Assembly (NCBI GenBank): GCA_003568945.1
Contig: BDIP01000048.1
Span: 1 to 36,362, forward strand
Direction of reading: 5' to 3'
DNA: 36,362 bases
Source of the DNA: Kipferlia bialata
Lineage: Eukaryota
Positions within the stretch are counted from its first letter, which is position 1. Every line of letters starts with the position of its first letter. The notes under the pieces were generated by a model. That model made no database searches. It was not told where the DNA came from and worked only from the letters and a program-made list of their open reading frames with translations. Position numbers and translations under genes: made by a program. Shown piece after piece: positions 711-36,109 of this stretch.

Positions 711-745
<35 letters not shown>

Positions 746-4289: not shown

Positions 4290-4322
<33 letters not shown>

Positions 4323-5158: not shown

Positions 5159-5940
5159 CTGGGGTCAGTACAAGACCCAATGTACGGCGGGGGGGGGGGG
5201 GGGGGGGGGGGGGGATCCAACACCATAGGGACACATGTGTGATCAGACAGTATATACCTTCTGTTTCCGTTTGTTGAATCCGCTGGCCTTTCCTGGTGTT
5301 AGAACCTGATGACACATGTTGAGGACCAATGGACGCTGAATATATACCTTTCTTAGACCCTATCACGAACATGTCGTACTGGACACTGTCATTGTCTGTC
5401 CCCAGTGACTTGAGAGCCCTCCTGTTTGACATGTCTGGGCGTATGCGACAGACCAAGGCCTCAGAGTCCCCGAGGGTTCCCTGCTCCGCCCCTGGCAGAG
5501 CGGAGTTGGAGGTGTTTCCTCAACAACCGAACCCCACCCTTATGGGAAGCGTCTAAAGGGAGGGGACACAGTGCCGCAGATATTCTCCCTCGTTCAGGAA
5601 GAGACAGACAGTGATATCAGTAGCTGGTAGCAAGATTTTTGGCTGGGTTGATCAAAAGGGGCTAGGGTTGGTTACCAACCGTTGGTACCTGCAACTATTC
5701 CACTCTGGTCCCAAAATATGACTTCTGAGACGCAAAGGCCTTCCAATTTGTGGGGAAGGTGCCAGTATAGTGTATTGCTGGGTCCTTGCTCCCAAATAGT
5801 CAGTGTTCCTGATGGCACCATTATTCTATTGACACAAATCCAGTGTCACTCTGCTCCCAGAGACGTGCCAGTCAATGACACAATATTGACTGCCATAGCA
5901 TATGTAATTGAACTATAATCAAAGACACAGATACACAGAG

Positions 5941-8900: not shown

Positions 8901-11407
8901 GGTGGCCGATGTACCGCCGGCTGAGTGCACAATGTCGGCATGGATGTCGAAGGGATACTGGCAGTGGGAGCTGTCTCCTAGCAGCAGTGGGGACAGCCTG
9001 AACCTGTCAACACTGTCTCCCGGAGCCCAATGAGCAGGGTCTGTGTCTGGACTGTCTCTCTCTCTCTCTCTCTGCTCGTGGGACATGTGCCACGCATCAG
9101 ATAGGCTACTCTGGAACAAACTGCCCGAGAAGACAAACTGCTCTACCCCTGGGGACCCAGTGTCAGTCACCGCCTCACTCACAGTGTCAGTTACTCTACT
9201 AGTCACTCTATCAGTGACTGTTTCAGTCACTGTGTCAGAGACACGGGCCTCAGGATGGACTGAAAGGTGGGCGTGAGAGACATGAGAGGGGTCATGTTCT
9301 CCCATGGTGGCATCTGCCCCCTCTCCCATGGTGGCATCTACCCCCTCTCCCTTGGCGGCATCTGCCCCCTCTCCCATGGTGGCATCTGCCCCCACTCCCA
9401 TGGTGGCATCTCCCCCCTCTCCCATGGCGGCATCTACCCCCTCTCCCATGGCGGCATCTCTCTCCTCACGGCATCTCTCTCCTCTGCCCCACCAACCTCA
9501 GTCACCCCAGTGTCAGTGGGGATGGTGCAAGACTTACCAGTCTCAACTATCCAGCCATCAGCACCCACTCCTACACCCTGCCCAAGGGTGTTGTGTATCA
9601 CAGATCGCGGACCATACACAGCAACATGGGCAGGAAGGCGAAGCCACTGGAGACTGGATGGATCACGGCCTGGCAAATGAGAACAAGACAAAAACACCAA
9701 ACTCAGAACCAAACTCAGAACCAAACTCAGAACCAAGAAATATAGAATACCACCATCCCCAGGGAGAAGTGGCTGGAGATGACGCAGTGTGCTATGCTCT
9801 ATGCACCCACCCAAGTAGCAGGGCTGTGCCTGGGGCACCACCATGTCGGTCAGGGTGTGAAGGTGATCCCAGTCATCCAGGGGAGCGTCCTCACTCTCAC
9901 TGCTCTCACTGCAGTGTGAGAAGACGCATGTCGATCCAGCAGGATATTACAATACTGATTGATCCACCCATACCTAAGATATGCCTCTCTTGCTGCCTCT
10001 TGCACAGGAACACCCGTTTCAACTTCCCCACGCACAGGTCGACTACTCATCCTCCGGCTCTCCCTGCGCAGTCTGTCTCTCTCCCTCCGCTGCCTCTCCT
10101 TCTGCCGCTTCAGCCTGAGCTGGTGTCGCCGTGCCTTGGCTTTGGCCCTCTTAGCCCTCTCGATATCCCTCTCAGCCTCGACCACAGCCTCATTGTGAGT
10201 CTGTGTCTTGTCATTGTACGACTCGGCAGCCTGGAGGTCAGAGACGGTCACATGGAACACCCTATACAGGCAGGAAATGGCTCGGACGCACACTATGTCA
10301 TATCATGAACAAACCAACAGTATCACAAGGGCAAGGGCACTGTCCCCCAACCCCCCCTCCCCAATCACCCATACTGTACAGTACCAGCCTCTATATACCT
10401 ATATATGTCTCTATACACTAATACCTGTTCGATGGTCTCTGCCGCCATACTGAGCAGGGTCTGTAGAATGTCAAGGCGGACAGAAGGGGTCAGGGCCTGG
10501 AAGAAGACATTGGGATCGGGGCGTGGCACGTTTCCCCTTCCGGCAAGGTCCGACAGAATCGTGGGGAGAGAGGGCCTGTGGCTGGTGTGACTGGGGTGGC
10601 TGTGGCCTGCCGAGGCAAGGGATGGGCCACGTCCCATGTCTGCCGTAGCCCACTGGTCAGTCCCCTGGGGGGAATCACTTCCCTCACCCTCATCGTCGTC
10701 CTCCCCTATGTTGTGCACAATACGCCACGCACACGAGGACAGCGCTTTGTCAAAACTAGGGTTAGAGACCGGAATACATAAGGGGCCACCCGAGAAAGGA
10801 AAGAGAAAGCCATCTGTTGAGGTGCAAAGGTACCTGAGGCGTTGGGTGAGGGTCTGACACACACGCCACACTATCAACCTGGAGTGAGTGCCTAGAGGTG
10901 GATACGGAAGCCTCACATGACCTGATCGGAGGTCAAACGCTGTTCTGTATGTATATACTTACAGTGGATGAAGAGGTCAGTATACAATAGGTCATATCAT
11001 GACAAGCAGGACACCCACCTATACAGGATGAAATGGTCCTCATCTCTTGCGTCCAAGGCCCCTCTGAAACTCTGGTGTGAGGGAGTGACACACAATCAAA
11101 TGCAGGGGTCATCGAGTAAGGGACTGAGTAATGGATGGAGAGCCTTGGAATATGGAGTGAACAGTAAGGCAAAGTTACACATCTCATTACTATTGGGTGA
11201 AAGACAAACACCCAAATGTACACCCAACATGATGCAACTAATGTCCACGCTTATAGCACTCAGGACACAACTGCCAGAGAGAGACTATATGGAGAACCGT
11301 GCCTCGATTGTCAAGTGTGGCAGACGCAGACAGGGACCATAGGCAGTCAGGAAGCTGAACACAGAGGACACCTCAAGCGCATGCAGGTCCAGTGGTTCAC
11401 CTCCCAT
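5941..11407 (-). CDS. DDT + WHIM1 domain protein (CECR2/RSF1/Ioc3-like ISWI partner) with long low-complexity and coiled-coil regions
   Basis: ATG 11405-11407: MGGEPLDLHALEVSSVFSFLTAYGPCLRLPHLTIE|SFRGALDARDEDHFILYR|LIVWRV resembles the DDT helix pattern; FFQALTPSVRLDILQTLL (~10450-10505) resembles WHIM1. A phase-compatible exon chain continues through ~9975-10230, ~8389-9496, ~8037-8321, ~6391-7371 and 5941-~6308. The first donor would be GC, so the 5' exon links are tentative. Confidence 0.65.
9298..9460 (-). repeat. Coding 24-bp minisatellite (~7 copies) encoding (M/K)GEG(A/V/G)DA(A/T)
   Basis: Unit ctcccatggtggcatctgccccct tandemly repeated with point variants; translates to MGEGVDAAMGEGGDATMGVGADATMGEGADAAKGEGVDATMGEGADATMGE. 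Confidence 0.9.
9696..9736. repeat. Intronic 12-bp tandem repeat (accaaactcaga x3)
   Basis: Three exact copies visible directly. Confidence 0.85.
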
Positions 11408-16024: not shown

Positions 16025-19000
16025 ATGGTTTTACTGGTCTCACACCCCCTTGGTTCGAGGCAGAGATTGTCAGACTGGTAACTAGTTCCAAGATGAGTCT
16101 TACTGTACGTATGCTAATTACATCTTACACCCTGAACTTGAATTCTTTGTCAACACACAACAAATGTTTCCCTGACGCTGAATACATGGTGGTCTATCAG
16201 AACCATGTATACAAAGAGTCCGGAGTACAGCTAGTATCACACTCACACCTAGAGTCTTGTTCCACATATTTCATACCACCTACGGTCTTGCTGCGTGAAG
16301 CACGAATACATGAAGGCGTATTCCGGAGGTCAGGTAATGACCATTGTCTTCACTTTTGCCCTTTGGCAGAAGTATACCATTAATGCCACACCCATTTTGG
16401 CCGTAGTATACTATCTCTCTACTCAACACATATTGAATAGCTATCAGTTCCCTCTTCTGATTTAGACTGTGACTATGACTGCCCAGTTCTCTTAGTAAGA
16501 GTCTTACAATAGGGTCTCTTTTATGTCCGTGTTACACGTATCTTCGATACAGATCTTGGTGTCAATGTGGAGACCAGAATACGAGAGAGACGGGACGGAA
16601 GGTGTGGTTGCTCTAAAATATGATATTTCTTTGAACTGAGTATGTCATTGATTATGAGTAGGGCCATGGTCACGATACACACAATGGAGTGAATCAATAT
16701 TTTGTTGACATACATATCTCTTTCACACAAGGGTTCTGGCTCTTGAGCCACCTCCCAGCATTCAGGCGGTATTGAAGAAACTGGACTGTGAGAAGTGGGA
16801 TCGGCAGAAGGGCATTAGCCATGTACGGGTAAAGTTATTCCGATTGAGTATAGATGCCGATTCGGCAATATTTGTGGACAGTGCTAACATCATGTTGCCT
16901 TTTCACCTTAGCCTGTCTCTTACATGTCGTCTTGGTCGCGATACACTGGATTGAAACGCTTTGCCCTTTGGCGCCTTACAGTGACACCCACCCAAAGAGT
17001 GATCAAGACAATCCTGCACGATCATTTCTCGAGGCGTGGGTATGTGTACATTAATACATGGCATTGATTGTACTATTTCTCTTCGCAAACCATATATCCT
17101 CGTCGCATACCTGATAGTATGGCCCATATCTGATATATGGTCATAAACATATGTATATATACTTCAATTCATTGGCCACATCCTCCACATATCAGAGCCA
17201 AGGAAGTCAGTATCTTCACATGCTTGAAATACTATATGACTCTTGCACCATGGTAATGCACTATCTCGAGGCTCATCATCAGTGGAGTGTGGGGTATTCT
17301 TCCCGACTCCCCGCTAATCAACTACCACAACCTGCCTCCTGGGGTGGATCCATTCTTTGTAGCGCATCCAAGCCTCCTACCAACACCGACTCAGCAGCTC
17401 AACGTCTCAATTAGTTCACTCTCTGCTGCCGTAACACCTTCATCTCCCTGGACTGAGGTAGAGTGTACCCACTGGTGCAACACCTGTAAAGTACCAGTTG
17501 TGAGGAACCTTGTGAGGATGGTAGTGAATGAGAACAGTGCCGAGAAGAGACGCCCATTCACGGTAAGAGTGTCTCTATATGTAATTTGACGTTGTGTTCC
17601 TTGATGTTCTCCTTTCCCACTATAATGGGGTATGTGTGTTCCAATCTATCATGTCTTTTAATGACAGGTAAACTTTCAGAGACACACCATTGGAGATGCT
17701 GGGATTCTGGAACTTGCGTCTGCCATGCCTCAGCTTGGGTCTATAGTATCGGTGCGTACATACACAAATATACCCGCCAATCACATTCATTACATGGTGT
17801 ATGATACACCGTGTAATTGACAATGTCTGATAGACCAACTTGGATAGATGTGCTTAAACATTACCACATGGTGTCTATATATATGTGCTGATTCCCAGCT
17901 ATCCCTTGTGGGCAACCAGATTGGAGACGAGGGAGCAGAAGCATTGGCGCAGACTCTACATCACCTGGATAGACTGACAATGGTATGTTCCTATTCGGTA
18001 TCTCTATTCTGTGCTTGGGGATAAGATGGGCTGATTATTGGGTCAATTTCACACCGTCAAATGTCATATTAAACTGCTAGATCGGTTCTTTTGGCATACT
18101 CACTGTCAGCTTGGACTCCATGACAACAACATTGGAGATATAGGGGCACTTGCTCTCGGTAGAGCAGTAGTCAGTCACAAGAGTCTGAAGCAGGTCTTTA
18201 TAGAAATATAGCAATACTGTGTAATTGTATATAATAGTAATACATAGAACATACCAGTAATCTCAACTGCGGGATGCCGGCTCACCTCTAGGTGATGCTT
18301 ACACGTAATAAGATCACTGAGAGAGGGGCCAGAGCACTTTCAGAGATATTGGGGGACTCAGTTGGAAGGGTTCTCTTCGGCAGGAGTCGCAGAATCCCCA
18401 TCAAGACCTTACCGGTGGTTGCCAGGCCTAGGCCGGCTGTGGACAGCCAGGTTCTAAGGGACAGCCTCCAGACGACAACAGTCTGGAGTAAGGATCAGTG
18501 GAACAACTGGTTCGGTACATGTGAGGCGACAGCTGTTGTTGACGCTGTGTCAGAGTCATATCGTAAGCGGCACTTCCAGGTATACGTCTAATTATCTTTT
18601 CGGTGTAGCATCATAGTAGTAAATGACCTGGTCTTGCAACTGATTCTCAGGTTCATCTTAGTGCTAGTAACCTAGGAGATATGGAGGTCATGTCTCTTAC
18701 ATCTGTCCTCCCACAGCTGTCTCACCGCTTGCACCGGAGTGTTAAGGGTCACTCTGGCGCATCCCTTACTCACGGCCACGGGTACAAGAGTGGTCTTCTT
18801 GAGGTATCTCCCAAATACTGACGTCATACTAGATGTCTCCTCATATATAACTCACAATATCTGGTCCGTGTGTACCACCCTTGTTTACAGAACAATCTAT
18901 ATCTGGTCCATTAGCTGTCTGCTCTATATAGTGGTAATGTACAACTTGTACAATTGTCTGATATCCAGTTGAGACTCGAAGACAATCTGATAGGTGACCA

Positions 19001-21543
19001 CGGAGCTATCGCTCTGGCTGAGACCCTTCCGCTCCTGACAGACATCTCAGTGGTAAGTAACCCTTGGAGTTGGCACATCTGATGTGATATGTCCTGTCTA
19101 CTTACTCACTTGTCCTGAGTATTCCCACTTCAGCTGAGACTCCACGGAAACAGAATAGGAGTTACGGGTTGTGTAGCCCTTGGCCGTGCAATATCCCGAC
19201 ACAGGACTCTAGGCCAGGTACTCATTCGTATTGAGTGTTATGCTGTAATCAACGCCAGCGCCGATCTCTCTGTAGATATTTGAAGACACTTTGTAGGCTT
19301 CACACTGACAATTGTCTCCCCTTAATCCATAGGTCTGGCTCTCTCCCACTGTTGACACGGACAGTGGGGCCAGAGCATTCGTGCAGAGCCTGGGAGACTC
19401 AGTTGGAAAGGTTAGGGTCTTGACTGTTTTGGAATACTGCATTCTATACTTACAAGAAGGGTAATCCAACTCTCGCTTATACTAGGTCTGTCTCTTCGGA
19501 TCCAGTATCGATCCACTGCTCATAAACCTCCTGAATGACGCACACGCCAAGCAGGCTACATCTAGTAGTTCTGGGACTGTAGAGGGGTTAGCAGGGGCCG
19601 ATCTGACGACTCAGCCACCTGATGGAGAGGAAGGAAGAGAGGTGATGATGGTAGAATATGGTGACACTACACACTCCCCACCCCTGGACCCATCGCTAGC
19701 CAGAGCGGCATTCAGAGAGGGTCTCTACTCTAGGGCGCCACATGCTACCTCTTCTCCAAGATTGGACTGTAGACGGGCTGTCACTGCATTCAGGCAGGGT
19801 CTCTATGGTCACTCCGATTCTGGAGCACCTTCCACTGACAGAAGAAGTAGCTATTCTGTTTCCAAGAGAACCAGGGAGACTGCTGGGTTGCCAGCTACCA
19901 CCTCTGACCCTGCTGCTGGACTGGTAGCGAAGCGGCGACCAGGTGCCAAGGTAGACATCCAACCCCAACCTTGCACAGCCTTGATAGAGGTTGACCCCTT
20001 CGATGGAGGTGGGGATCCCTTCGAAGAGATTGATGAGCTCAAGTGGGCCTGGCACCCATCGAGAGGTCTCGTAGGAGTAGCCCGTTTCGAAGAGGTGGAC
20101 CCTCCTCAGGAGGTGGATCCGTTTCTGGGGGATGGGGACCCATTCAGAGAGGATGATCCTTTTCAGGAGATTGAGTGGTGCCAGTATGGAGGTCCTTGGC
20201 TGAGAGATCCCTTTGAAGAGGTCGACGATCTTCTTGGAGAGTACATGCCTTACCAGTCTTCAGTAGCTGACCGTACAATGCATAGAGGGGTGGACTTTGA
20301 TGAAGTCGATCCATTCTTAGGGGATAGCGACCCTTTCGCAGAGGTGGATCCGTTCTTAGGGAATGCCGGAGCTGGGACAGAGTTGGATCCATTTGCAGAC
20401 GGCTATGACGCATTTGAAGGTGAGGATAGATGTGTTGATGAGAGTAAGCATTCTGGGAGAGAAGGTCAGAAGACACCAGCCGAGAGTACTGTCCGACCTA
20501 CTGAGAGTATGGCTCAGGAGAGAGTGAGGGATGCTGCAGTGGTTCCGACTCACTCCCTCTTAGGCACCCCACAGAGACAATATGCTTCTCCTTCTGCTAC
20601 CCCTGTGGCGAGTGTTCCCTCTGCTGATGCTACCATGAGAGACACTACAACTGAGGGTACTGATATGCAAGATCTACGAGATACCTGCCAGTCTCAGCAG
20701 GCCGAGATTGACACCCTTCGCTCTCTAGTGGCGACAATGGATACTGAGGCTGCCACTCTTCGCACTCAGCTCTCCACCAGTACCCAAGAGGCAGTATCCC
20801 TACACGCCAAGGTCTCTTCCCTACATGAGTCGCACGCGAAGTCCAGGGCAGAGGGGTATCAGCGGATAATGGGGATGCACAAGTTACTTGACATTCAGAA
20901 GGAGAGGACACAGAAGGCCCAGCAGCGAGTGAAGGACCTTAAAGAGCAGTGTGGGACGCAGAAGGCAGAGATTGTGAGACTTGAGTCAGAACTTCGCCCT
21001 CAGATTGCATCCCTGAGATCAGCACTAGTGACTGGGAATCAGCAAGTGCAGTCCTTACTTGCCAGTGGTAAGATTCTTCAGGAGTCCAATACCGCCTTAC
21101 ATGCTAGGGTGGTTGACATGGAGAGAGCGCAGACGGCTGCCCAGCAAGAGACTGCCTCTTTGCGGTCGGAACTAGCTGCTTCACGCACTCGCACTGACTC
21201 CCTCCAGAGAGACGTCTACAGTAGGAATATGAGGGTTGTCTCCTTGCAAATAAGGCTGCATGATCTTGCGACTTCACACACAGCTGCTTTACAAGAGAAG
21301 GACCAGCAGTATGCTGCTATGGAGCATGTGCTAGAGGAGCAGAAGGCTAAGGCTGTTCGTGCTAAGCAGAGAGGGATACAGGCATTGGCTGAAGTGGAGA
21401 GGCTACGTTCACTGCTGGCTGAGGTTGAGGGTCAGAACCTCATTGACACTATTCCTCTTGACCTGGATGATGACCAGTCTTCAGAGTCCCAATCGGATGA
21501 TGGTGCAGGGGGAGAGGGAGATGGAGATGTTGATATGGGTTAG
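16025..21543 (+). CDS. Paralog 1: N-terminal unknown domain + two RI-like LRR modules + DPF-repeat region + coiled coil (start not found)
   Basis: 84-nt phase-0 exons each encode one 28-aa LRR (17668-17751, 17899-17982 LSLVGNQIGDEGAEALAQTL, 18110-18193 LGLHDNNIGDIGALAL, 18969-19052, 19134-19217); last exon 19486-21543 has 10 DPF motifs and a heptad coiled coil. Upstream exons (16025-16104, ~16253-16333, ~16732-16828, ~16912-17039, 17283-17562) are supported by homology to paralog 2. Confidence 0.85.
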
Positions 21544-22750
21544 TCTCCAGTAAATGCAGTTGGACGTTTTGGTACCAAGCCGCTCTATATTCAATAGTGT
21601 CTCTGGAACATATACCCGGGGTTAACATCCTTTCTGTATTACCATAAAGTTCACTCTTTCATAATCTATAAATTTGCACTATTTGAACTCAGACCTTGTC
21701 ATGTGTACGTGTGTACATGTTGTTCAACTCTATTTGTTTCCTGAACCCTTTTCCAACACTGTTCCTGTAGATGCACCTTGCATCTACTGCAAGACCTCTC
21801 TATCACGAGCTGCTGTATCGTTAGTCAGAGCAGAGTCCCCAACACATACCCTCAATCCAGTCCTGCCTGGCATTGCAGTGGTATGCAGGGACATGCCCAG
21901 CCGCAGGGAGAGGTGTGTACACTGAGCCTTAAGATTGGCTGTCCTAAATCTGACTCTATATACTTTATCACCCATCTGCCCCATCCAACCTTTCAGCCTC
22001 TCACAGGTGCAGCTGTCCCTGTGACTCGTGTGCCACAGTTGGGAGGTGAGTACGCTAGACTTGCAACCCCCCCCCCCCCCCACCACATAGTAGTATTGTG
22101 TGTGTATTGTATGTATATATAGATATACTCTATATACACTCTATATACACTCTATATTTACTCATATATTGTGTTGTTGGACTCGTATGCCACAGTTGGG
22201 AGGTGTGTATACCATATTTGCAAGGTGCCCTGCCAGGATATGTGGAGAGTATCTATGTATAGAGTGCGTTACTTTCTCCACTCCACAATATGAGTATTCC
22301 ATACTGATACCAAAGGGTCCCAATGTCCCGTGTTAGTGTTGGTTGTACACTTCCATATTTACCCTCCCCCGTCCCCTCTCATAATAGTATTGTACTTGGT
22401 GTATGTGTGTTCTATAGCATTCCCACTCCATATACACTAGGGTCTCCATTCTACGCGGTGCCTCCATGGGATTGAGGGTGCTCCCTTTTGCTTCCCACAT
22501 CCATATATGCTCTCCTCATATGCACTACATATATACGTTTATGCATATATGAGAATTACATATATATACATACATGCTCATCACTGGGTATGACAGGGGG
22601 GGGGGGAGTATTAATCCATGTCCTATTATGTACATTCTTTTCTCCTCCTCCTCCCCACTCACAGAGGTGTCAGTGACACTATCACATTACAAATACACTA
22701 GAGATATTACTGATCCTATCTCTCTCCCTCAGACTCATTCTCCTACACTA

Positions 22751-25700
22751 GGGAGTCTTACCGGTTTGACTACCCCTTGGCTTGAGGCGGAAATGATCAG
22801 ACTCGCAAATGGTTCCACGAAGAGTCTTACAGTACGTCTACCTGTTATGGTGTTAATTTGGATGTATATGTGAGTGTCCACGTACATCTGTGTGTGTGTG
22901 TGTGAGTGTGTGCGTGGGTGTGTTTTCATTAATAGATATATATTGTATCCATACTCTCACACACATGCCATTGTTCACTACGTATCAAGCAGTCTCCGTT
23001 TCGGCTGTGTAACAGACGAGTACATGTTGAGGCACACAACACAGGTATCCTTACATCTATGAATAATACTATTACACTATTATAAATAGTAGTATAAATA
23101 TTAACAGACGAGTACATGCTCATGCACACTGTGCAGCACAGAAGACATGTATACATACTATGCAATTACATTGGATTGATAACAAAGTGTAATTTAAGTT
23201 GACGTACCGTCAATATATGTTGGTGTACTGTATTGTATTGTGTATTCAAATGGTAGACAGTATGAATGATTGTTTCAGCCATTCACGCATATATTATGGG
23301 TATCAACTATTAGATCACTTTCACTAATCTAATCACCCCAAGGGAGTGAGTATTGTACGGGTGACTCATGGAATAAGGACAAAGCATGTGGTCGATGGCG
23401 TGCTTCAGAGGAGTGGGGGAAGGTGATATGTCATGTATCATGTGGGTATATCATATAACACTCCACCATAATCTCTATATATCACTACTTTCTTTCATAT
23501 TACCCTCACTGGTGCTATGTGTTTCATATTGTGGTATTTGCTGTTAAAGTGAAGTTTGACTAAGTGCAGGGCTCTGTTCGTGGAACCACCAATCCGTATT
23601 CAACGGCAAGTACTCGATGCATTGCCTGACCTTGTAAAATATGCTTCCAGAGTGAGTCAAAGAAGTGAATAATGTGGAACAACAAGCCTTACAGTTCTTT
23701 ACGTGATTGTGTGGAGGGTAGTGGTAGTGTTCAATACTCGGTTTTGAGCATTCTTACAACAGGCACAGACTAGGTCGTTTCTCTATGATGACAGACCCGG
23801 TTCTGAGCCCTTTCACCTCACACGCATTGTCAACCCACCTGCAAAGAGATCGATCAAAGATATCATCAAGGAACACTTTGTTAAGGGTGACGGATACAGG
23901 TATGGGCCTTGCACCTTACTTCTATATATATTTATATTACATGCTTCTTTTGGGGCACCGTCAATGTATCACCGGTGAAACATGTTATCTATGCATATAT
24001 CTATCATATCAGGTATATTACCGTATATTGTGACTCACTTCCTAGGGGAGTCTGGCGTCTTCGGCCTGAATCTCCCCTTGTGACGCTGGAGACGCTTCAG
24101 CCTGGGGTGGATCCATTCCTACACTTGAGAACTAATCTCGACACTGATGTTTCTGAAGAGGTTGACAATACTCCAATGGAACCCTCTGAGTGGACTGATG
24201 ACGAGTGGGGTTTCTGGTTCCAAACATGTGACGATAGTGCTGTAAAGGAAGCTGTGAGGCAGAGAATTAGGGGAACTGCCCATACACATTGGTTCAGCCG
24301 TATGTATCCAGTTTCGCTTTGCTCTTCATTGAAGCATACCAACCTACTTATGTCGAAATGTCACTTCCCTCTTAGTAGAGTATCCCTGGGTGACACTGGC
24401 ATTTTGCAACTTGTAACAGCCCTTCCTCAGCTATGTGGTATCCACACGGTATGTGTCAATATATGTAAAGTATATCTATATATGAAGTGTATTCCATGTA
24501 TACTGTGTCTCTACATCTCTCTACTTCCATCTACCTACCCTCTTTAGAGCAATGCACATAATCTTTACTACCATCGGAGTCCGTTTGTGACCTTATCGCC
24601 ACACCGTTGCATCTTTACTCATCCACAGCTTTCGCTTATGCACAACAGGATTGGAGATGTGGGAGCAGTAGCTCTAGCACAGACGCTGCATCACATGAGA
24701 GACCTCACATATGTACGTCCAAAACGACGTTTGTTCTCTGATTCTGTTGTGTCTTCTCTTTGTAAATGTAAACTCTCTATCAGTAATGCAGCGAGTCTGG
24801 ATATACACTATCTTACGATAGCTTGGACTCCATGGAAACAATATCGGGGACATTGGTGCTGTTGCTCTTGGCGAGGCTGTCTTGGATCATCAGAGTCTAA
24901 AGCAGGCAAGTCTCTTGTATATTGACAAGTATATGCAGTTTCCACTCCAATGTGGAGAGCCTGTCCTTATCTTTCCATGTGACTCATCCTCAGGTCTGGC
25001 TGACTCGGAATCAAGTTACTGATAGTGGTGCGATGTCTCTGATTAGTATACTTGGAGGCTCAGTTGGACAGGTAACGCCTTCTTCTGTCAGAACCACATG
25101 ATAATCGATGGAGTGTAGTATATCTACTGAGTATACTCCCCATATACTTGTCTCATCCTCAGATCTGTCTGACTGATAACCATATTAGCCAACCAGTGTT
25201 GGGCAGAATCCGAAGGATCACTCGGAGAGAGGCTGCTTCGGCAAGGTCTCTGAATGAAGGCAGCCTATCCACTGATATCCAAGAACTCTGTTGTGATATC
25301 TCAGCAGAGCCATGGACCAAGAACCAGATGGTCGAATGGCTGAACAGTTGCAACGTACCAACTGTGCGTGCAGCCGTGGAGTCGTGCTTCAACTTGAAGT
25401 GGCCTACGGTATACTCATATATAGAGTTGATGGATATATGATCATAATTCGACATATGTCTGAAAGACAATTACGCTGCCACCACTCACACTCAGCTCTA
25501 TCTAGGTCAGAGGGATCTGAGGGATGGAGACGTAATTCCCTTCTTCTCTGTTCTGCCCAGACTGTGCAAGTTACTGCAGAAGACCAAGATGTCGTACTGT
25601 TACTATGCTAAGAGCCGTCAACCATGTATTCAAGAGGTATCAATGCCATAGTGTATCTATTGTATGGCCAGTATCAGTTCTGATCTAAGAGTGTGTATGT

Positions 25701-27951
25701 GAACTTGTACGTTGCAGCTACACACTCCACACGAGCTTCTAAATGTCAGATAAGACTGGAACACAACCAGATAGGAGACAGTGGGGCTATAGCTCTCGCC
25801 CAGGCCCTTCCATTCATGTTCCATTTGTCAGTGGTATGTAGGTGTCGTAATTGTATGTTAAAGTAGTTAATCCTGTTACAGTTATAGAAATCTCATGTAT
25901 CAGGTGAGACTCCATGGGAACAGTATTGGAGACAAGGGATTCCTTGCTCTTGCACGTGCTATCTCGAGTCACAAGGCCCTCACCAGGGTGAGATCAAGCA
26001 CTATACTGCTTCCCGTTGCCTCTATTGTGTGACACATTGTATGTGTAATTTGCCACCACTCTACCTTGACCCCTTTCTTTGACCATAGGTATACATATCG
26101 CCCATGAACATGACTGACGGTGCGGCCAAGGCATTTGTACAGAGCCTTGGAGAGTCTGTGGAAAAGGTTGGTGAATGGTATTGTGACTCTTGGTCATAAT
26201 AGTCCTCTATCCCATTTCACTTCTAGGTCTGCCTCTTTGGGTCGGGTATCAACACGGTGCTCATCCGACTGATGAATGAGGCTGTTTCTACCCTAATGGT
26301 GTCTAGGCGTACTGCTGTTGATGGTGTTGCAGCTGATAGTGATCACACGCCAGGGACGGAGACTGTGGAGAGAGAGGGTGTGGTTGGGCAGGCCACCATA
26401 GACACATCTCCAGCCTCACTAGCTCTAGACGCCACCCTGGCCAGAGCGGCTTTCAGGCAGGGCATGTATGGCATGAGTAGCTTATTTGGCAGGCTCTCGG
26501 TCTCTGTGGCTAGAGGGAGAGACGTCGTACTGAAGAGACCCAGAGAGAGTGCAGTCCGAGACGTGTCTAGTGAGGCGCTAGAGGTCACATGCCACTCTTC
26601 TAGGTCTCATGCTCTGAAGCGTCTTGCGTCACCAGCCAAGCGGAGACCACTCATGTCACGTACTTGCCTATTGACAGAGGTAGATCCATTTGATGGAGGT
26701 GTCAACGACCCATTTGAGGGAGGGGAGGATCCTTTCCAGGAGATTGATGAGATCAAGTATGTGTGGTGCCCAAGCCGGCATTGTGTTGGAAGTGGAGATC
26801 CCTTTGAAGAGATGGATCCGTTTCTGGGAGATGGGGACCCATTCAGAGAGGACGATCCATTTGAGGAGGTGGACACTGCACACCTTGGGATACATGATCC
26901 ATACTATGGCTCAACACAGAGGATACCAACTCTCGATTGGGATGAGGTAGATCCTTTCTTGGGTGATGCGACCCCGCTAGGTACAGAGTTGGATCCCTTT
27001 GCTGATGGCTATGGTACTGTTGCTGAGCCAGAGTGTCTGGACATCTCTGACGATGATGTACACATTACTGAGAGTGTGGGTCAGGACACTGGTGTGAAGG
27101 GCCCTCACTCGGAGAGAGTACACGCGGTAGAAGGTACTACCCTAGCACCAGTGGATGCATCACAGACGCTTGATGGGATTGGTGAGACTATGGATGGAGA
27201 GACTGAGGTTGACATCCTTCGCTCACTGCTGGCTACCAAGGACACTGAGGCTGTTGCTCTGCGCTCGCAACTCTCCACCAGTACCCAAGAGGTAGCGTCT
27301 CTACACGCACAGGTTGCCTCTCTTCACGCCAAGATGACCTCTCTTCAGCAGTCCCACACTGCTACTCTGGAGACCAGTCACCAGCAGTACCTCCAGATGC
27401 AGCAGTTATACTTGATGCAGGGGAAGAGTACTACTCAGGAGAGGCAGAGAGTGATGGGTCTCACAGAGAAGTGCCGTTCCCAGCAGACAGAGATAGATAG
27501 TCTGCGGTCTCAAGTTGCTGTCGAGACCAAGCGATCTGCCTCGCTGCAGTCAGATCTTCAGGGTAGAGACCTCCAGATATCGTCGTTGTAAACCACAGTG
27601 AAGGAGCTTCAGGACACCCACACTGCGGCATTGCAGGCGAAGGACCAGCAGTATCAGAGCATGGAACAGGGGTTTGCGACAGCTCTACAAGAGAGAGACC
27701 AGCAGTACACTGCTTTGGACCAAGTGCTAGAGGAGCAGAAGGCCAAGTCTATTAAGGCTAAGCAGAGACGGAGACAGGCACTGGCAGAGGTGGAGAGACT
27801 GCGTACACTGCTGTCTGAGGTTGAGGGTCAGAACCTCATAGACACCATCCCTCTTGATCTGGATGAGGACCAGTACTCTGAGTCAGTGGGAGAGGAAGAG
27901 GGAGTGGGAGAGGGAGAGGGAGAGGGAGGGGGCGATTTGGAGATGGCCTGA
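22751..27951 (+). pseudogene. Paralog 2 of the LRR-DPF-coiled-coil gene, probably pseudogenised (5' exons may reach ~21771)
   Basis: Same exon series as paralog 1 (e.g. LTGLTTPWLEAEMIRL, LSLMHNRIGDVGAVALAQTL, LGLHGNNIGDIGAVAL; 9 DPF motifs; shared C-terminal EVEGQNLIDTIPLDLD). In-frame TAA at 27589-27591 opposite CAA in paralog 1, and AT instead of AG at the expected acceptor 22965-22966. Confidence 0.7.
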
Positions 27952-28073
27952 ACGGCAGTATATCCGTGACTTATGGTTGATAGACATACCTCCATTGTTT
28001 TTGCGTCTTGAACCCTTTTCCCACACCGTTTTCGTCCAATGATTGACTCCAATCTTGCCTCTCTTCTCATAGC

Positions 28074-28167
28074 AATGCAGTGTGGTGTTGTTGCCCTGCT
28101 CTGTGCCTTGGCACTCTGCATATGCACCACATGCCCGCCTGGAGGCCCAGCAGACCCGAGTGAGAAC
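28074..28167 (+). CDS. Possible first exon of a secreted protein, no clear continuation
   Basis: MQCGVVALLCALALCICTTCPPGGPADPSEN followed by the strong donor gtgagt; signal-peptide-like; downstream exons not convincing. Confidence 0.3.
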
Positions 28168-28358
28168 GGTGAGTGGCAATATACTACTCTGTATGTGTTG
28201 GAGTATTGTAGACTCCATATGTCTCTCCATCCCACTACCTTGTACTATACAGTCGTCTCTCCCTCAATATACATACCGGGGGCTTAATGTGATTAGCTGG
28301 ATGGCAGGGGCACCTACTATTGTGACTGTTGTTAGCATATGGGTACCAGTTACGCCTA

Positions 28359-28389
<31 letters not shown>

Positions 28390-28396
<7 letters not shown>

Positions 28397-28957
28397 CCCA
28401 GCTTCACTACCCTCTGGGTACCATCAGCCATGGACACACACAGGTTGGCTATCCTGACCTGGTATTAATGCCTTAATACACACACATATATGAATAACAT
28501 AGAAAGTGTACCAAACAGTGATGAACTAACGTAATATCCAAATCTTCCTCACCTGTACGGCAATTGCGCCTCCCAGCTGGTAGTAGTCTCTCTCTCTCTC
28601 CTCCTCTATCCGCTCCTTCTCCTGAGGGGTTGCTGCATAGTAATCCGCAGAATCATCCCCTCTCTCCCCTTCTCTCTCCCTCTCCGAATTGAGTGAGGAT
28701 AGCTGGAGAGGACCTTTCTCACCCCCTGCCCCTCTAGACGTTCTCACAGCATAGGATGCAGACGGTGATGAGAATGGGTTGTATACAGGTCCAATGTCTA
28801 GATGGTCCTGTGAAGCTGTGGCCCCCATGCCCTTGGTGTCAGCAACCCAGTCATCATCCTAGGGGTTAGTGATATATATAGGTACATGTAGAGAGAGAGG
28901 GGGGGGGGAGGCCCCATCCCGTTTGTGTCAGCCACCCAGTGATCGTGAGTGATGAGG

Positions 28958-28988
<31 letters not shown>

Positions 28989-30941
28989 TATCGACGTTAC
29001 CTGTCCTTCCACTATGAGTCTCAGCACAGTCTTTGCAGTGGCCAGGTCAGCTAAGAGTGAGGGGGTATGTATACACATTTGTCTATGTATACATATATAT
29101 ATAGAGAGAGAGAGAGAGTGTGTGTGTGTCAACAATAGCCAAAGTCAGCTGGGGATAAGGGATATACATATGTGAATATATGAATAGAGAGAGGGAGAGA
29201 GAGAGAGAGGGAGAGAGACCACATCTTTAGATCAGTGAAGCACATGAAAGAAAACACAACACTCCCATATGATAAGAGCATATGATTCCAACAGGTACAG
29301 CTACACATACTATACCCCACCTGTCTCATAAACTGGCACATGCGGGTATCCAGAGCTTCCATAATCCCTAAGTATTAGAATAGAGCAACGACAAATATTT
29401 ATTATAGCTATCCCTAGGTGTGAGAACAATACAAATACAAACATGCATTTCTAGTTTCGGCATTACTAAGACACCATAAATACTCCTCTGCATCCTATGT
29501 CACACTGTAATATTCTGAAAGGAAGGGAAGGGAGCAACACGTACTTGTCCAGGGCGAGAATGGCAACAATAGGATCCAACTTGGACACTGGAAATACAAC
29601 CTAGGGGTTAGGGGGGGGGGGGAAGAAAGGAAAAGGAAAAACTTACGAATAGAGACAGCAATCTTTAATCAAAAGAGAACAATAATACATTAACCCTTGA
29701 TACATGCAGTACCTGATAGAGAACTATATCTAACAATTATTAATATGTATCCAAGTACCTGGTACAGGTCCCGTGTCACGTCCTCTTCCCTCTCGATAGC
29801 AGACCTGGAGACATAAGCATAAGTGACAAAACAGATATCACACAGGGAAGAGTCTAACACCGAGAATTGGAATGTGATATTGTTAACATACCATGTGCTC
29901 CTGGCAATCACTGTCCTGAAACAAATGTAGTAGAATAGAACAATTTAATACAGTACATATCGGCCCTACCTTGTGTTTCTGTCAATGACAATCCTGGAAC
30001 ACAAGTAAATAGAGAATTGTATGGTGTGGTAAAACACAATACTATATACCTCGTGTTTCTGTCAATGACCATCCTCAAACATATACATTTCAAATATTAT
30101 AGGATAATATCATGGTTATACCTTGTGTTCCTGTCAATGACCATCCGCCTCTCCTTCTTCCTGACCCGGATGGCATCCAGGGAGTTGGACAGGATCTCGT
30201 GTCTAGAGTTAGAGGGTATGGAGTATATATGTATGTCTATACATATATGTATAAATATATATATGTATAGACGAGTGAAGAATATCTGACCCGGATGGCA
30301 TCCAGCGAGTTGGACAGGATCTCGTGCCTAAGGTAAATAGTATATATACACTATATGTAGATATGTAGATTCTACTCTTATCAATATCTGACATCTGATG
30401 GCATCGAGGAAGTTGGACAGCATCTCAAGCCAGGAGACATATTCATATCAATGTATATATGGGTATATATATATATATGGGTATATATATGGGCAAGACC
30501 TCACCTTGACAGTTTGTATGGTAGCTCAGGTGGCTTGTGGCGGCTATTGACTGGTGAGTGAAGGTCACTGCAAGTTAGTATGATTCCGGTATACAATAAT
30601 AGTGTTTGACACTCCCATTGGGAAGAGGTGACGAAGAGGATAGAGGGTGAGAGAGAGAGAGAGACATGATCCATACCTATGGGCCGGGGAGTGTGCCACA
30701 TAGTGGATGATCCTGGGAGTCAGAGGGGCTACAGACACGTATATACAAACACTTGGAAACACTGCAAGGACATCATATATGTATGTATACACATTGGTTT
30801 GAGGTACCCATGAGTATGTCGAAAGATTACATTCATACACTTGTGGGAATTGAATACATACATGTATATATATGAATACCTTGGCTTGAGGTACATGATG
30901 GCCGAGAACGCTGGGATGCGGGAGGTCATGTGCTCAAGGCT
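28390..30941 (-). CDS. Hypothetical protein, 10 exons, 5' end missing
   Basis: Phase-compatible exons 30880-30941, 30677-30712, 30505-30543, 30122-30202, 29759-29804, 29545-29600, 29321-29367, 29001-29050, 28553-28858, 28390-28458: SLEHMTSRIPAFSAIMYLKPRIIHYVAH...HEILSNSLDAIRVRKKERRMVIDRNTRSAIEREEDV...VRIANLCVSMADGTQRVVKLGR*. No family recognised. Confidence 0.75.
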
Positions 30942-31472
30942 CTGGGGTCAGGTTCAACTCTAACTAGGCTTAGAATCATACACTTCAATATCTCCCCTCC
31001 ACTATCAGAAGAATAAGTCCATCCACGTACTCTATAATGGGCACAGTGTGTCTATCATCTGAAGCATGACAAACCTTCTCTCTAATCTCCCTCTCTCTAT
31101 ATATATGTACATATACATATACACATACACACGTATATACCTTCAGAGTGAGGACTGCATTGTCTGACACGTGAAGACATTCTCTCTCTCTCTCTCTCTC
31201 TCTCAAAATACATACATACATACCCAAATACAAATATATATGTAATATATACCTTGAAAGTGAGGACTGCATCGTCTGACAACGTGAATTATTCCCTCTC
31301 CCCCCCCCCCCGGTTTGTATCACTATTTATGTCTCACCCTCCAGGACAGCTCCCTCGTCAACGCCATTATAGTTACTTTATATGTATATGTATATATGTA
31401 TACAGTGATCAATAGTATGTATTGTACTGATTACTATGTACTGTATCACTCTATATACATCTCACTCTCCAG

Positions 31473-33059
31473 GACAGCTCCCTCGTCAACGCCAACCTCC
31501 ACGGCCTGGCACTCGACAGTACGTTCTTCTCTCTCTCTCTCTCCGTCTACACCCTTTTGTGCATATTGAAGTCAACCTGTCACAATGCATGACGATATGT
31601 TTTCTCTCTCCCTAAACCCCATTAATGCCTAGACCTTGACCTCTCTGGGTGTGATCTGTCTCTCTCTCTCTCTCTCTATACCCTTAATTCCTAGACCTTG
31701 ACCTCTCTGGGTGTGATATGTCCCACGCTGACCTTGGGGAGTGCTCCTTCAACAAGGCAGTCTTGAAGGGGACTATCTTGAAGGTATATAATGTATATAT
31801 ATATATATATAACAAGGCTATCTTGAAGGTAACCATACTTAATGTACTTAAGGTAAATATTTACAATATTGATGGTGAGTGCTCTTTCAACAAGGCAGTC
31901 TTGAAGGGGACTATACTTAAGGTATATAAATACAACATTGATATATATATATAGAGAGAGAGAGATGGTCATTCAACAAGGCAGTCTTGAAGGGAACTAT
32001 CCTGAAGGTATTATTGACTTCATATATTGACGTTTCTCCCCAGGGTACCGTATTTTCCCACTGTTCTAATTTTGCAACATTGTATATATATATGTATACA
32101 TATCTTTCTATATACTAATCTCACCCCCAGGGTACCGACCTGTCCCACTGCAGTGGCATTGACAATTATTAATACAGATAATACATATACTTTACTATAT
32201 GTGCACTGTATGAATATATGTATATATATATATAAATATATATACATTTATAATATACTATATCTACATTGTCTTACCTTAAGGGTGCCGACCTGTCCCA
32301 CTGCAGTGGCATTGACAAGAAGATGCTCCATGCCGTGGCAGACCTGAGGTACAGTGTATATGGTATATATGTTTATATATATATTGTATGATGTTAGTCA
32401 CATGTATGATGCTGCACGCAGTGGCGGACCTCAAGTAGGGAGTATATAGAGTGAAGATAGTGTGTATACACGTGTATATTCCTGAGGCAGACACGCTTCA
32501 GCTGCCTCTTTCGATGAGTTCACCCTTAGGGAGACCAACCTCTCTGCCCTCAACTTCCCTGATACTCTATACACATTTGTANNNNNNNNNNNNNNNNNNN
32601 NNNNNNNNNNNNNNNNNNNNNNNNNNNNNNNNNNNNNNNNNNNNNNNNNNNNNNNNNNNNNNNNNNNNNNNNNNNNNNNNNNNNNNNNNNNNNNNNNNNN
32701 NNNNNNNNNNNNNNNNNNNNNNNNNNNNNNNNNNNNNNNNNNNNNNNNNNNNNNNNNNNNNNNNNNNNNNNNNNNNNNNNNNNNNNNNNNNNNNNNNNNN
32801 NNNNNNNNNNNNNNNNTGTGTGTATATGTGCTATTGTTAGCTGTATATCTAATCTCTAGGGAGACCAACCTGTCTGCCCTCAACTTCTCTGATACTCTCA
32901 ATATGTATATATATATATGTGTGTGTGTGTGAATATACATATAGGTAGATAGATAGATACTGTATATTCTATCACTCACTTCTAGGGAGACCAACCTGTC
33001 TGCCCTCAACTTCTCTGGGTTCAGCCTCAAGAAGCTGGACATGACTGGGTGCATCCTAG
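31473..33059 (+). CDS. Pentapeptide-repeat protein fragment (4 exons; both ends missing)
   Basis: Exons 31473-31518, 31695-31783, 32284-32348, 32986-33059 join in frame: DSSLVNANLHGLALDNLDLSGCDMSHADLGECSFNKAVLKGTILKGADLSHCSGIDKKMLHAVADLRETNLSALNFSGFSLKKLDMTGCIL, an A(D/N)Lxx periodicity. Confidence 0.85.
32582..32816. other. Assembly gap (235 N) inside an intron
   Basis: Run of N; flanked on both sides by echoes of the same downstream exon, so the scaffolding is locally consistent. Confidence 0.99.
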
Positions 33060-33440
33060 GTATGTATATATAGATATATACATATATATACATGTACAAT
33101 AATCAATATATATATGTTTGAATATTAGAATATGTATATAGTGCATATATATATATCTGGCTTAAGCCTCAAGAAGCTGGACATGACTGGATATGTACTA
33201 CGTGTGTATACATTCATATATATATATATATACTTATTAGTTAATGTATATAGTGCATGTATATATATGTGGTGTCTATATCTGGCTTCAGCCTCAAAAA
33301 GCTGGACATGACTGGATGTGTGCTAGGTTTGGATTGGGTATATATAGTATGTATGCTATTGTATGGTACATTTAATATCATTGTGTATGTCCAGATATTG
33401 TGGACAGTATATTTTTAGACGTGACTGGGTGCATCCTTGG

Positions 33441-33483
<43 letters not shown>

Positions 33484-33496
33484 ACCCTTATTCCAG

Positions 33497-33688
33497 GGCA
33501 GCTATGCCACCAGCCAGTGTGACCTGTATGTCAGACAGAGCAATGAGGCACTGTCCACATCTCAGCTGCTCAGGACAAGGTATGGTCCATATATCATAGT
33601 ATCCATTTCTTACATGTAATCTGGTCTGTCCATGCATATTCTTTTTCTCTCTCCCCCTATCTCTAAGCTCAGCACCCCATTGCCCACT

Positions 33689-33726
<38 letters not shown>

Positions 33727-33780
33727 TCTAACCTCAGTACTCCCTTACCTACTGACGGGTCCGATCTGTCGGTGACTCTA

Positions 33781-33817
<37 letters not shown>

Positions 33818-36109
33818 AACCCCAGCACCCCCTTACCCACTGACGGGTCTGATCTGTCCATGACCCTTTTGGCCGGTACATACTCTGTGGTGGTGACAGA
33901 GAGGTCAAGGTCAAACAGTGAGGTACAGTACACAATTATGTGTTGCAATGATATGTGTATATAGACACAATGTAGAGTGTGTATGCCTGTACACTATACT
34001 CAGTGGTGGTGACAGAGAGGTCAAGCTCAAACAGTGAGGTATTTATGTATGTATATAGTAATTAAATTAGTTCATACTATATACTCACTTCCCACTCTCT
34101 CTAATTCTTCTAATTCTTCTAACCCCCCAGATCCTGACTGCCACCATCGACAACCCAGAGACATCCATGATGGACATCACGTGCGTAAGCCCCCTTTTAG
34201 AAACTCAAATTCTTCTCCCTACCCTAGTTTGTACACTCGCTATGTATACGAATACCTCTTTCGGCCCCTATTCTCACCCTAGTATGAGACTGCTTGCCTC
34301 TACAGAGCGTAGAACCGTGGCAGTCTCCCTATCCCAGTCCCTGGATGGATGGACACTCAGGTCTAGTACTGCTGGGACTACTGGTACCTTGCACTCAGTG
34401 GCCCTGGAGGATGGTGAGTATATAGTGTAGTATATCGCATATACACTGTGTCTAGCGTGCAGGTGGTCTCTCTGTCTCTCTTCTCTACGCCCCTTACCTG
34501 TAGGCACCGACAGCTACACCCTGACTATCCCCAGCTGTGTTACTATGGTTATTTTTATAGGGGTATACTTATACTTATGAAATCTTGAGTCTCTTACTTA
34601 CCTGCAGGCACCGACAGCTACACCCTGTCCTTCCCCACCACTGAGTGCACTGTCACACTGGTGTCACCCAGTGGTGTGTACAGCACAGACTACACACTAG
34701 CTGTAGGGGAGACTACTCTTGAGGTATATATGTATATATATGTGTATATATATACGTATATACCCCAGTGGTGTGTACAGCACATACTACACCATTAGTG
34801 TAGGGGAGACTAGCCTTGAGGTATCCATATACACTGAGTACTAGCACAAATAAATATGTGTATATATATGTATATATACACTGGCCGTTGGGGAGAACAC
34901 TCTGGTCTACTATTTAATGCAATTTTATGAGTGTCTCTCCATCTTACTCATCAGATTAGTATTTCCACCCTGACCCTTGCTGCCACTGATACTTTCTACT
35001 AAATAGTGATTTCTTAGAGACTTCTGTTTTTGTTTTGTTTCTAACCCTTCAGATTGACGTCACCACCCTCACCCTTGCTGCCACCGAGGCTGACCTACCC
35101 GTGGCAGTGGCAGTGACATCCAGCGGGGGAGTATCTGTGGAGGTATGTTAATCATAGTGTATTTTTACTATAACACACGCACATAGTACATAATTGTATA
35201 TATATGTTGTGGCAGTGGCAGTGACATCCAGTGGGGGAGTTTCACTGGAGGTATACATATTATGTAAATAGTATCTATGTGTGTTTATGTGTATGTATAT
35301 ATGACCTGTATACGTATATATGACTTACCCGTGTCAGTGGCAGTGACATCCAGTGGGGGAGTGTCAGTGGAGGTATCACAAACATATTTGTATTATTCAT
35401 ATTTGTTGTCTTGGTAGCCTTATCAGTGTGTCTATTGAGGTATTCCAAACACATTACAATACTTAAGATTAGTATATTATTCTTCCTAACCCTAGACCCT
35501 TGTCACAGCGGATGCATCTGCCGTGTCTGTCAGTGTGCCTGTCTCTGACACACTCTACACAGTACAGACAGGGTACATGTCACCTGTGACAGGTTAGTGT
35601 CACACCCAAGTACTGTTGTGTTCATGTATATTGTATATTGTATATTGTATATCAAGGGATCCAGACATCTCATTATATGTCTCACTCTCAAGCTCTGCTG
35701 TCTACATGACCTCCCACATACTCTCTCTCTCCCTCTATCTTCGATATATTTTCTAAATTAGTATATATTATCTCACTCTCAGGCTCTGCCCTGTACATGG
35801 CCTCCCAGGACATGGACACATCAGGGGCAGAGGATACATATGAGACAGGTACTGGATAATGTGTGTTATTGTAGACTGTTGAAATTTATATATATATGTG
35901 GTATGTCGTACATATATATCGATATCTATCCTAACCCTAGACCTGTGCACTGTGTATTCCAGTGTGGACACAGACACAGTATATATATATATGTGCGGAT
36001 ATTATTCATTATTATTATGTATATATGTGTATGTACCTAACCTTCAGACATGTGCACTGTGTATGCCAGTGTGGACACAGACTCAGACACCAACAACATC
36101 ATGGCCCAG
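33497..36109 (+). CDS. Ser/Thr/Val-rich, beta-strand-rich protein fragment, probably extracellular; continues past window end
   Basis: Exons 33497-33579, 33826-33922, 34131-34180, 34283-34413, 34608-34723, 35053-35142, 35496-35592, 35783-35848, 36048-36109 are all phase-compatible: GSYATSQCDLYVRQ...LSMTLLAGTYSVVVTE...GTDSYTLSFPTTECTVTLVSPSGVYSTDYTLAVGETTLEIDVTTLTL... Confidence 0.8.

Follow-up and report, generated by a model that had tools for sequence, protein, structure and literature searches.

Intronic copies of exon ends in a Kipferlia bialata contig, with partial support for a coding past

Partial or tandem copies of coding sequence are known from several genetic systems, and an intronic form of them is described here from a contig of the free-living protist Kipferlia bialata (BDIP01000048.1), the whole of which, 36,362 nt, is the window analysed and to which all echo counts are confined. 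The copies are termed exon echoes, an echo being an unspliced intron copy of the end of a neighbouring exon together with its splice signal. Silent donor cassettes for gene conversion, such as the chicken pseudo-V genes, Borrelia vls and Anaplasma msp2, serve one variable locus, and transfer from them is evidenced. One-sided invasion starts from homology at one end, while the other end is joined by microhomology or without homology, and so produces partial duplicates. Duplications formed by microhomology-mediated break-induced replication (MMBIR) or template switching are known from induced breaks and disease rearrangements (PMC4888836). Intron 7 of human F7 carries a 37-bp variable number tandem repeat that spans the boundary of exon 7 and intron 7 (PMC1557585), introns have been gained in Drosophila by partial tandem exon duplication (PMC2891723), and the mutually exclusive exons of Dscam are whole, spliced tandem copies that diverge under coding constraint (PMC3236188). 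The literature searched, with subscription papers and supplements lying outside it, held no account of exon echoes in K. bialata, and the earlier parts of the genome paper (PMC5874029) do not mention them.

Like the F7 repeat, the echoes are junction copies in tandem that leave potentially functional pseudo splice sites, silent in F7 and probably so here; F7 uses the exon-proximal site, and the K. bialata RNA contigs follow the exon splice sites among the pieces listed, contigs being assemblies that do not show rare isoforms. A direct tandem copy over the exon-intron boundary is present in 38 of 39 echoes. Unlike F7, in which near-identical minisatellite monomers occupy a single locus, K. bialata has units of about 100 nt at both exon ends and at 19 of 43 exons, with differences of coding type and intron parts that are mostly unalignable, near-identity that includes the intron failing since the flank can be aligned in only 10 of 39. 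The short tandem duplications behind Drosophila intron gain also overlap coding sequence and splice signals, but there a proto-splice site makes a new intron, whereas the K. bialata copy lies silent inside an existing one. Dscam shares the tandem exon copies that diverge under coding constraint; its exons are whole and spliced, whereas just one of the 39 echoes is whole with both sites and the other 38 have a single boundary. Donor cassettes resemble the echoes as partial, non-expressed copies that look coding-constrained, with open frames and conservative replacements, features equally expected of young snapshots; the echoes differ in lying in many unrelated genes and in that no transfer is seen in DNA or RNA contigs, which drop rare variants. 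They work most like one-sided invasion or allele capture, in that one end is anchored by homology and the other joined without it, the identity of the template being inferred, although unlike the known MMBIR and one-sided invasion cases they are a standing feature of many introns.

The K. bialata genome is a 51-Mb short-read SPAdes draft with 124,912 GU-AG introns, and its k-mer peaks suggest diploidy, according to the parts of the genome paper drawn on here (PMC5874029). Five gene models with continuous frames, comprising 43 exons, were built by hand in the window: GA, GB and GC, which make up the focal region, and the comparison genes G1 and G2 at 550-5300, of which G1 is a glutathione peroxidase (Pfam match). 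Self-alignment revealed short direct repeats about 100 nt apart in the focal region and at 600-5050. An exon-first, codon-blind scan of some 15 kb of adjacent intron and short terminal flanks returned 39 echoes at 19 of the 43 exons, against 2 matches in a control of 311,272 exon-by-non-adjacent-intron bases, and the partial exon-end copies with splice site reported by the first-pass annotation are thus present where it had placed them, far above chance. The focal region holds 29 of the echoes and G1 and G2 the other 10; a looser scan of 5400-28600 added only two, at 22180 and 23102.

The echoes are unspliced tandem duplicates that each combine one exon end and the splice signal with some 70 nt of intron. 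Their polarity is strict: all 17 upstream echoes copy the 5' part of the exon, and 21 of 22 downstream echoes copy the 3' part, the sole exception being a whole-exon twin at 31141-31163 with both splice sites. The earlier description of echoes as lacking the other exon boundary accordingly stands for 38 of 39. The same number are anchored at the splice end, all are in direct orientation, and the median unit length is 104 nt. With each further echo an intron is 102 nt longer (r 0.89; 38 introns), the median of echo-free introns being 91 nt. While one end of an echo is an exon-anchored match, the inner end abuts unrelated, often dinucleotide-rich sequence; inner junctions lie next to TA/CT-type dinucleotide runs in 39% of 38 internal junctions compared with 15% of intron 16-mers, so that the fading into (TA)n or (CT)n noted at first is an enrichment and not a universal property. 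TA runs occupy 3-9% of the echo-rich genes G2, GA, GB and GC against 0-1.3% of 5900-28000, and G1 has 0.8% TA runs and 5% CT/GA runs. An inner breakpoint is common to the members of four echo pairs (2884/2774, 30074/29994, 32860/32530 and 33156/33281). No stop codon occurs in the frame of any of the 39 echoes, and among the echo arrays TRF reports only a 62-nt unit at 31603-31722.

The first-pass annotation had described the differences between echo and exon as almost only synonymous, on a hand tally of 38 synonymous to 5 non-synonymous codons in ten echoes. That description fits the ten, in which 31 of 37 differences are silent when trimmed and 37 of 47 when extended to the splice site; in the other 29 echoes silent changes number 25 of 59 trimmed and 38 of 88 extended, and the full set, extended to the splice end and untrimmed, has 135 differences (34/14/87 at the three codon positions) of which 75 are silent. 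The observation is real but was overstated. Neutral decay, under which 24-35% of changes should be silent, is rejected in all eight settings of the main scoring (p < 4e-6). The null originally proposed, dN/dS near 1, was nonetheless the wrong one: plain duplication with the exon alone constrained gives a ratio of about 0.5, because the working exon goes on gaining silent changes, and only an excess below 0.5 is informative.

Measured against this stricter null, the excess persists in the full set. Changes fall on 14 of 432 second positions, 43 of 833 0-fold sites and 50 of 223 4-fold sites, which gives a position-2/4-fold ratio of 0.14 (p 6e-6 to 2e-4 against 0.5) and a 0-fold/4-fold ratio of 0.23 (p 1.5e-4 to 2e-3). 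Resampling of 26 exon ends by bootstrap, each represented by a single echo, places these at 0.03-0.30 and 0.16-0.48, respectively. Null simulations that include detection have means of 0.46-0.62 and reach values as low as those observed in 0 of 600 runs (position 2) and 1 of 600 (0-fold), with 4-fold divergence simulated at 0.13-0.15 against 0.22 observed and with echoes handled as independent. The echo at 31811 is possibly misaligned, and the ratios without it are still 0.14 and 0.23. Transition or GC mutation bias was considered as a cause and discarded: transitions to transversions at 4-fold sites are 18:25, and the neutral null fails at all kappa values to 8 with GC x3, although at kappa 8 with GC x3 the data become compatible with the site-level null of 0.5 (p 0.14).

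The nature of the changes points the same way. Replacements are conservative (mean BLOSUM62 +0.41 versus -0.54 under neutrality, p 0.00035), and among 0-fold sites position 1 has changed in 22 of 368 cases versus 6 of 415 at position 2. When echoes are compared with one another, 50 of 79 differences in 16 pairs are at third positions, with 29 silent versus 34 non-silent codons; for copies whose splice sites are intact the figures are 24 of 35 in 11 pairs and 18 versus 14 codons, the pairs in neither comparison being independent. By gene, GB and GC have a strong bias, and GA taken by itself does not reach significance. Because of the conservative replacements, the third-position bias between echoes and the splice signals that have diverged yet remain mostly intact, the echoes themselves appear to have a coding past, which is supported for GB and GC and weakly for GA. 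The suggestion that echoes are snapshots of coding-constrained sequence is to that extent partly supported, with a smaller excess than the hand tally implied and no such sign in the ten echoes of G1 and G2.

Splice signals bear on the same question (in these tallies echo 31345 is counted among donors, whereas the corrected model makes it an acceptor). The splice flanks of echoes are homologous to those of their own exon yet about 40% changed, acceptor flanks differing at 4.9 of 12 bases versus 7.3 for unrelated flanks and donor flanks at 2.4 of 6 versus 3.9. Real acceptors have a branch motif 2-7 nt before the YAG in 37 of 41 cases; the combination is kept in 13 of 17 echo acceptors, compared with 23 of 155 intron-interior YAGs. 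The donor GT is kept in 21 of 23 echoes (p 0.0005 under a rough decay model). Twelve echoes have no more than one mismatch to their exon (changes at 2 of 108 third positions), and in 7 of these the intron flank is no closer to that of the exon than unrelated introns are, which argues against self-copying, as this would give a matching flank. Second-position changes number 8 of 57 in the five echoes without a splice dinucleotide versus 6 of 375 in intact ones, as expected of a snapshot that later decays. Splicing appears to pass over intact echo acceptors that lie upstream of the real one, a hint of exon definition or of removal by nonsense-mediated decay (NMD).

Two sequence runs, both from one sample, were searched for contigs, X1 being a DNA run and X2 taken as RNA by guess only; X1 is possibly the assembly's own sample, and its contigs are then an independent assembly of the reads and not an independent sample. 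X1 contigs cover 29611-30450, 31688-31934, 32289-32556, 33103-33433 and 33827-34720 with no other letters among the pieces listed, at a depth of about 388-445, which matches that of contigs from other parts of the genome. At least 9 of the 29 focal echoes share one X1 contig with their exon (29611-30450, 31688-31934, 32289-32556 and 33827-34720), and the echoes at 33156 and 33281 sit on one common contig. In X2, six listed pieces of a 6467-nt contig follow GC exons, and exon 31695 is matched by a contig of 4363 nt, neither contig having echo letters; none occur in the 8 pieces listed from 3 RNA records, contigs being prone to drop rare forms. RNA record 11 passes unbroken through exons 33826, 34608 and 35053, and no new spliced intron has therefore arisen between the duplicated sites.

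Taken together, the sequence comparisons would be accounted for if echoes were what remains after unequal or one-sided recombination, anchored in exons, between alleles that had diverged strongly, followed by neutral decay, a reading that we consider evenly balanced between right and wrong. In such a process, TA-rich introns would favour a break or a stalled fork, from which one end would pair with the other allele inside an exon; alleles would match only in exons of 23-160 nt, and hence pairing would start there. Copying or crossover would then leave the exon and end in non-matching intron, to be joined without homology, so that the exon end and splice site of one allele would be stranded in the intron while those of the other are used. 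Unequal exchange between echo and exon could later add or remove units with the same inner breakpoint, which the shared breakpoints fit, and ordinary recombination could bring a different allele beside an initially identical self-duplicate; the echo would finally decay neutrally and be lost. A weaker form, in which a self-duplicate comes first and a different allele is placed beside it later, would give the same pattern, and the near-exact units at 760, 2884 and 31633 would be fresh self-copies in it. The strict polarity and the intron-bounded unit would follow because only products that keep one whole exon survive. Copying from an mRNA template is ruled out because the echoes contain splice signals. 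An echo's exon end and splice signal alike seem once to have worked in another copy of the gene, one with an intron that was diverged by then. Of the three options first offered for these copies, captured alleles fit best, close paralogs not having been found in a weak search, and for the same reason the other allele would be the simplest donor. All examined Fornicata are reported to lack non-homologous end joining (NHEJ) and Rad51A and to have two Dmc1 paralogs (PMC8516963), and in yeast, residues of the Dmc1 type made repair more successful where the template had diverged by 20% or more, so that a Dmc1-type recombinase may be more tolerant of such divergence (PMC6719624).

Several observations weigh against allelic capture. 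The focal region was picked by eye for its silent pattern, and when the ten echoes first tallied are left out the 0-fold ratio is 0.38 and not significant (p 0.18-0.39) and the position-2 ratio 0.22 and marginal (p 0.015-0.067), while the ten echoes of G1 and G2, dominated by one decayed copy, have 4 of 15 changes silent and no bias. The echo nearest to the exon is the youngest in 6 of 10 arrays, with 3 against and 1 tie, and slippage, if fast, in TA-rich introns could make flanks unalignable without a second allele. No donor allele was found in the X1 contigs, from one sample, and no alternative letters of a second diverged haplotype over 7.6 kb in those listed, contigs being assemblies that drop variants; 172 pattern matches in metagenome contigs yielded no confirmed other isolate or relative. 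A silent allelic diversity of about 0.1-0.15, as estimated from the ratios, would be needed, which is more than the ceiling of about 0.05 that follows from Paramecium figures in a recent preprint (Ne 17-528 million, u 2.26e-11; bioRxiv 10.64898/2026.05.26.727746). Admixture between cryptic lineages is a candidate that would supply the missing diversity. A broader proposal, tentative and on present evidence rather doubtful, is that exon-anchored, mismatch-tolerant recombination of the Dmc1 type between alleles with unalignable introns is the routine way in which K. bialata renews the ends of its introns. Every event would leave the former exon end and splice site behind in the intron, and a genome might so carry tens of thousands of fossil alleles that record hyperdiversity and exchange in a metamonad; if true, a reduced spliceosome would be ignoring intact branch-point acceptors that have no paired donor.

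Much of the same anatomy might come from self (sister-chromatid) tandem duplications over exon-intron junctions, with only the exon constrained, fast slippage in the intron and an excess bias owed to the hand-picked region. Polarity and a unit of about 100 nt are expected of any viable duplication with one exonic end, 10 of 39 flanks are still alignable, echo 31633 belongs to a near-exact 62-nt tandem, and the 0-fold ratio outside the first ten is compatible with 0.5, and G1 and G2 lack the bias; that the full-set ratios lie outside 600 simulations, that third positions make up 63-69% of differences between echoes, that position 1 changes far exceed those at position 2 and that donor dinucleotides survive amid heavily changed neighbouring bases all speak against it, and we hold this origin to be unlikely, if well short of negligible. 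Donors might instead come from within the gene family, as paralogs or as repeat units that ectopic recombination reaches. The bias is strongest in GB, with its pentapeptide repeats, and GC, which have transcripts of 4-6 kb; some GC echoes resemble a homologue with several conservative replacements, and transcript contigs reach far beyond the window. Yet two GC exons and residues 103-368 of the predicted protein P0001 (KIPB_000433) match only P0001, in a search that is length-limited and weak and would pass over distant or out-of-range paralogs, no diverged exon copies occur among the contigs listed at 80% likeness, and GA as well as the single-copy-looking G1 and G2 carry echoes too, which makes paralogous donors improbable.

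A present function, in which selection maintains echoes as donor cassettes, as splice sites that are seldom used or as spare ends that contraction brings back into use, would agree with the open echo frames, the high retention of splice signals and the silent bias between echoes, and is likewise improbable: the 8 RNA pieces from 3 records match exons, with the proviso on rare forms given above, echoes have no second boundary, the splice dinucleotide is gone from five, in which position 2 is decaying, and conversion quick enough for selection to act on echoes would, on reasoning, homogenise the echoes as well. The active donor cassettes suggested at the outset thus find no support in RNA contigs that, as listed, carry exon letters only. 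That echoes descend from mutually exclusive whole-exon duplicates, another of the early suggestions, has a single case in its favour, the twin with both sites at 31141-31163 and 31253-31275; it is contradicted by the one-sidedness and strict polarity of the other 38 and by inner breakpoints common to neighbouring echoes, and is very unlikely. Least credible of all is an assembly mosaic of alleles or paralogs. The scaffold comes from a short-read draft, contains an N gap and is probably misjoined at simple repeats, and the unit length is near 100 nt, but independently assembled contigs span exon and echo for at least 9 echoes at normal depth and without differences, with the reservation that they may come from the assembly's own sample, and the inner junctions have no long shared match on which an assembler could jump.

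If the echoes are captured alleles, past inter-allelic exchanges could be counted and silent diversity estimated from one assembly, and the outcome of break repair would be visible in a lineage from which NHEJ and Rad51A are reportedly absent; if they are plain duplications, junction duplication is unusually dense in these genes but otherwise ordinary. In either case echoes account for intron length here, at about 100 nt each, act as natural tests of splice-site choice through the seemingly skipped upstream acceptors, and mislead gene prediction.

Gene GA (28637-31275, minus strand) is unnamed and has 11 modelled exons in a continuous spliced frame, with its 5' part outside the window and its last exon on RNA record 9. 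An upstream echo of exon 28858 at 28912-28947 has lost its AG and is decayed. Exon 30202-30122 lies on a spanning DNA contig with four echoes, namely two downstream with donors, at 29970-29994 and, with the same inner breakpoint and 2 silent changes, at 30050-30074, and two upstream, at 30286-30327 with its acceptor and 2 silent changes and an older one at 30397-30430 whose AG is lost. The 23-nt twin 31141-31163 of exon 31275-31253 differs by D>N and F>L; including both twins would break the frame, and by their sequence they are a candidate mutually exclusive pair.

Gene GB (31473-33059, plus strand; exons 31473-31518, 31695-31783, 32284-32348 and 32986-33059) encodes a pentapeptide-repeat product that forms the N-terminal part of P0001, and RNA record 10 holds 31695-31780. 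Exon 31473 has an identical upstream echo with acceptor at 31345-31366. The upstream echo of exon 31695 at 31633-31660 is the near-exact 62-nt tandem duplicate, intron flank included; downstream of the same exon lie 31811-31843 (ambiguous alignment, possible internal deletion), 31873-31921 with donor (5 nt differ, protein sequence the same), both on a DNA contig, and 31966-32007 with donor. Exon 32284 has an upstream echo at 32131-32165 with a different, consensus acceptor and a downstream one with donor at 32408-32434 (5 silent changes; on a DNA contig). The echoes upstream of exon 32986 are 32530-32561, before the N gap, and 32860-32891, identical at 32 of 32 positions with a differing acceptor and intron; those downstream are 33281-33326 with donor (4 silent codons, I>V), its decayed sister 33156-33201, both on a DNA contig, and 33418-33439 with donor.

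Gene GC (33497-36109, plus strand) encodes a Ser/Thr-rich protein with 9 exons in the window, corresponds to the C-terminal part of P0001 and has a transcript contig of 6467 nt (RNA record 11); in a protein search its exon 34284-34412 matched the single K. bialata protein P0001. Upstream echoes of exon 33826 are found at 33673-33690, with only silent changes, and 33738-33779, with 6 silent changes and M>V, and a downstream echo with donor at 33996-34038 is on a DNA contig. Exon 34608 has an upstream echo with conservative replacements at 34504-34533 (on a DNA contig) and downstream echoes at 34764-34820, where three double-hit codons lead to conservative residues (L>I, A>S, T>S), and 34875-34907, where the donor is lost or shifted. 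Exon 35053 is flanked by 34955-34989 with acceptor and by 35209-35250 and 35321-35372 with donors. The remaining two are upstream echoes, of exon 35783 at 35692-35716 (AG lost) and of exon 36048 at 35941-35979 (three conservative replacements).

Outside the focal region, the G1 echo at 740-760 (minus strand) has an intron flank that is still alignable. The nine echoes of G2, also on the minus strand (2504-2516, 2591-2629, 2739-2774, 2849-2884, 3380-3422, 3490-3527, 4207-4227, 4811-4823 and 4915-4939), are mostly identical to their exons, with one decayed and no silent bias. The two downstream echoes outside the five modelled genes occupy 22180-22202 and 23102-23140, the second with a two-base silent codon change and a lost donor.

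Some features of the gene models deserve mention. The GB exon at 31466-31544 is open on the minus strand too, with an acceptor that is the reverse complement of a plausible donor and in phase with the next exon of GA; its assignment to GA was dropped in favour of plus-strand GB on the pentapeptide register, with little change on recounting, and the minus-strand reading is probably a coincidence. At 31280-31345, GA on the minus strand and GB on the plus strand, both without their 5' parts, meet at a poly-C run, and an RNA contig on GB carries about 3.1 kb of upstream sequence absent from the window; a scaffold misjoin is likely here, split or trans-spliced genes as in Giardia being a possible alternative. 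Within 31473-36109, a (CT)19 run at 33443-33481 separates the phase-1 end of GB from the phase-0 start of GC; the predicted KIPB_000433 joins the two through a weak 26-nt exon, and they lie on separate RNA contigs (record 10 at depth 430, record 11 at depth 199). KIPB_000433 is probably a chimera of two genes. At 28073-28168 (plus strand) a signal-peptide-like first exon with a donor is followed by no obvious further exon ahead of the (CT)n run at about 28365-28390, which is possibly another misjoin. A 24-nt tandem repeat at 9298-9488, within a long minus-strand reading frame, is not an echo. Lastly, 16025-21543 and 22750-27950 are tandem paralogs with leucine-rich-repeat-like exons and a long acidic or coiled-coil last exon, their exons being about 70-80% identical, and the last exon of the second contains an in-frame stop at 27589-27591.

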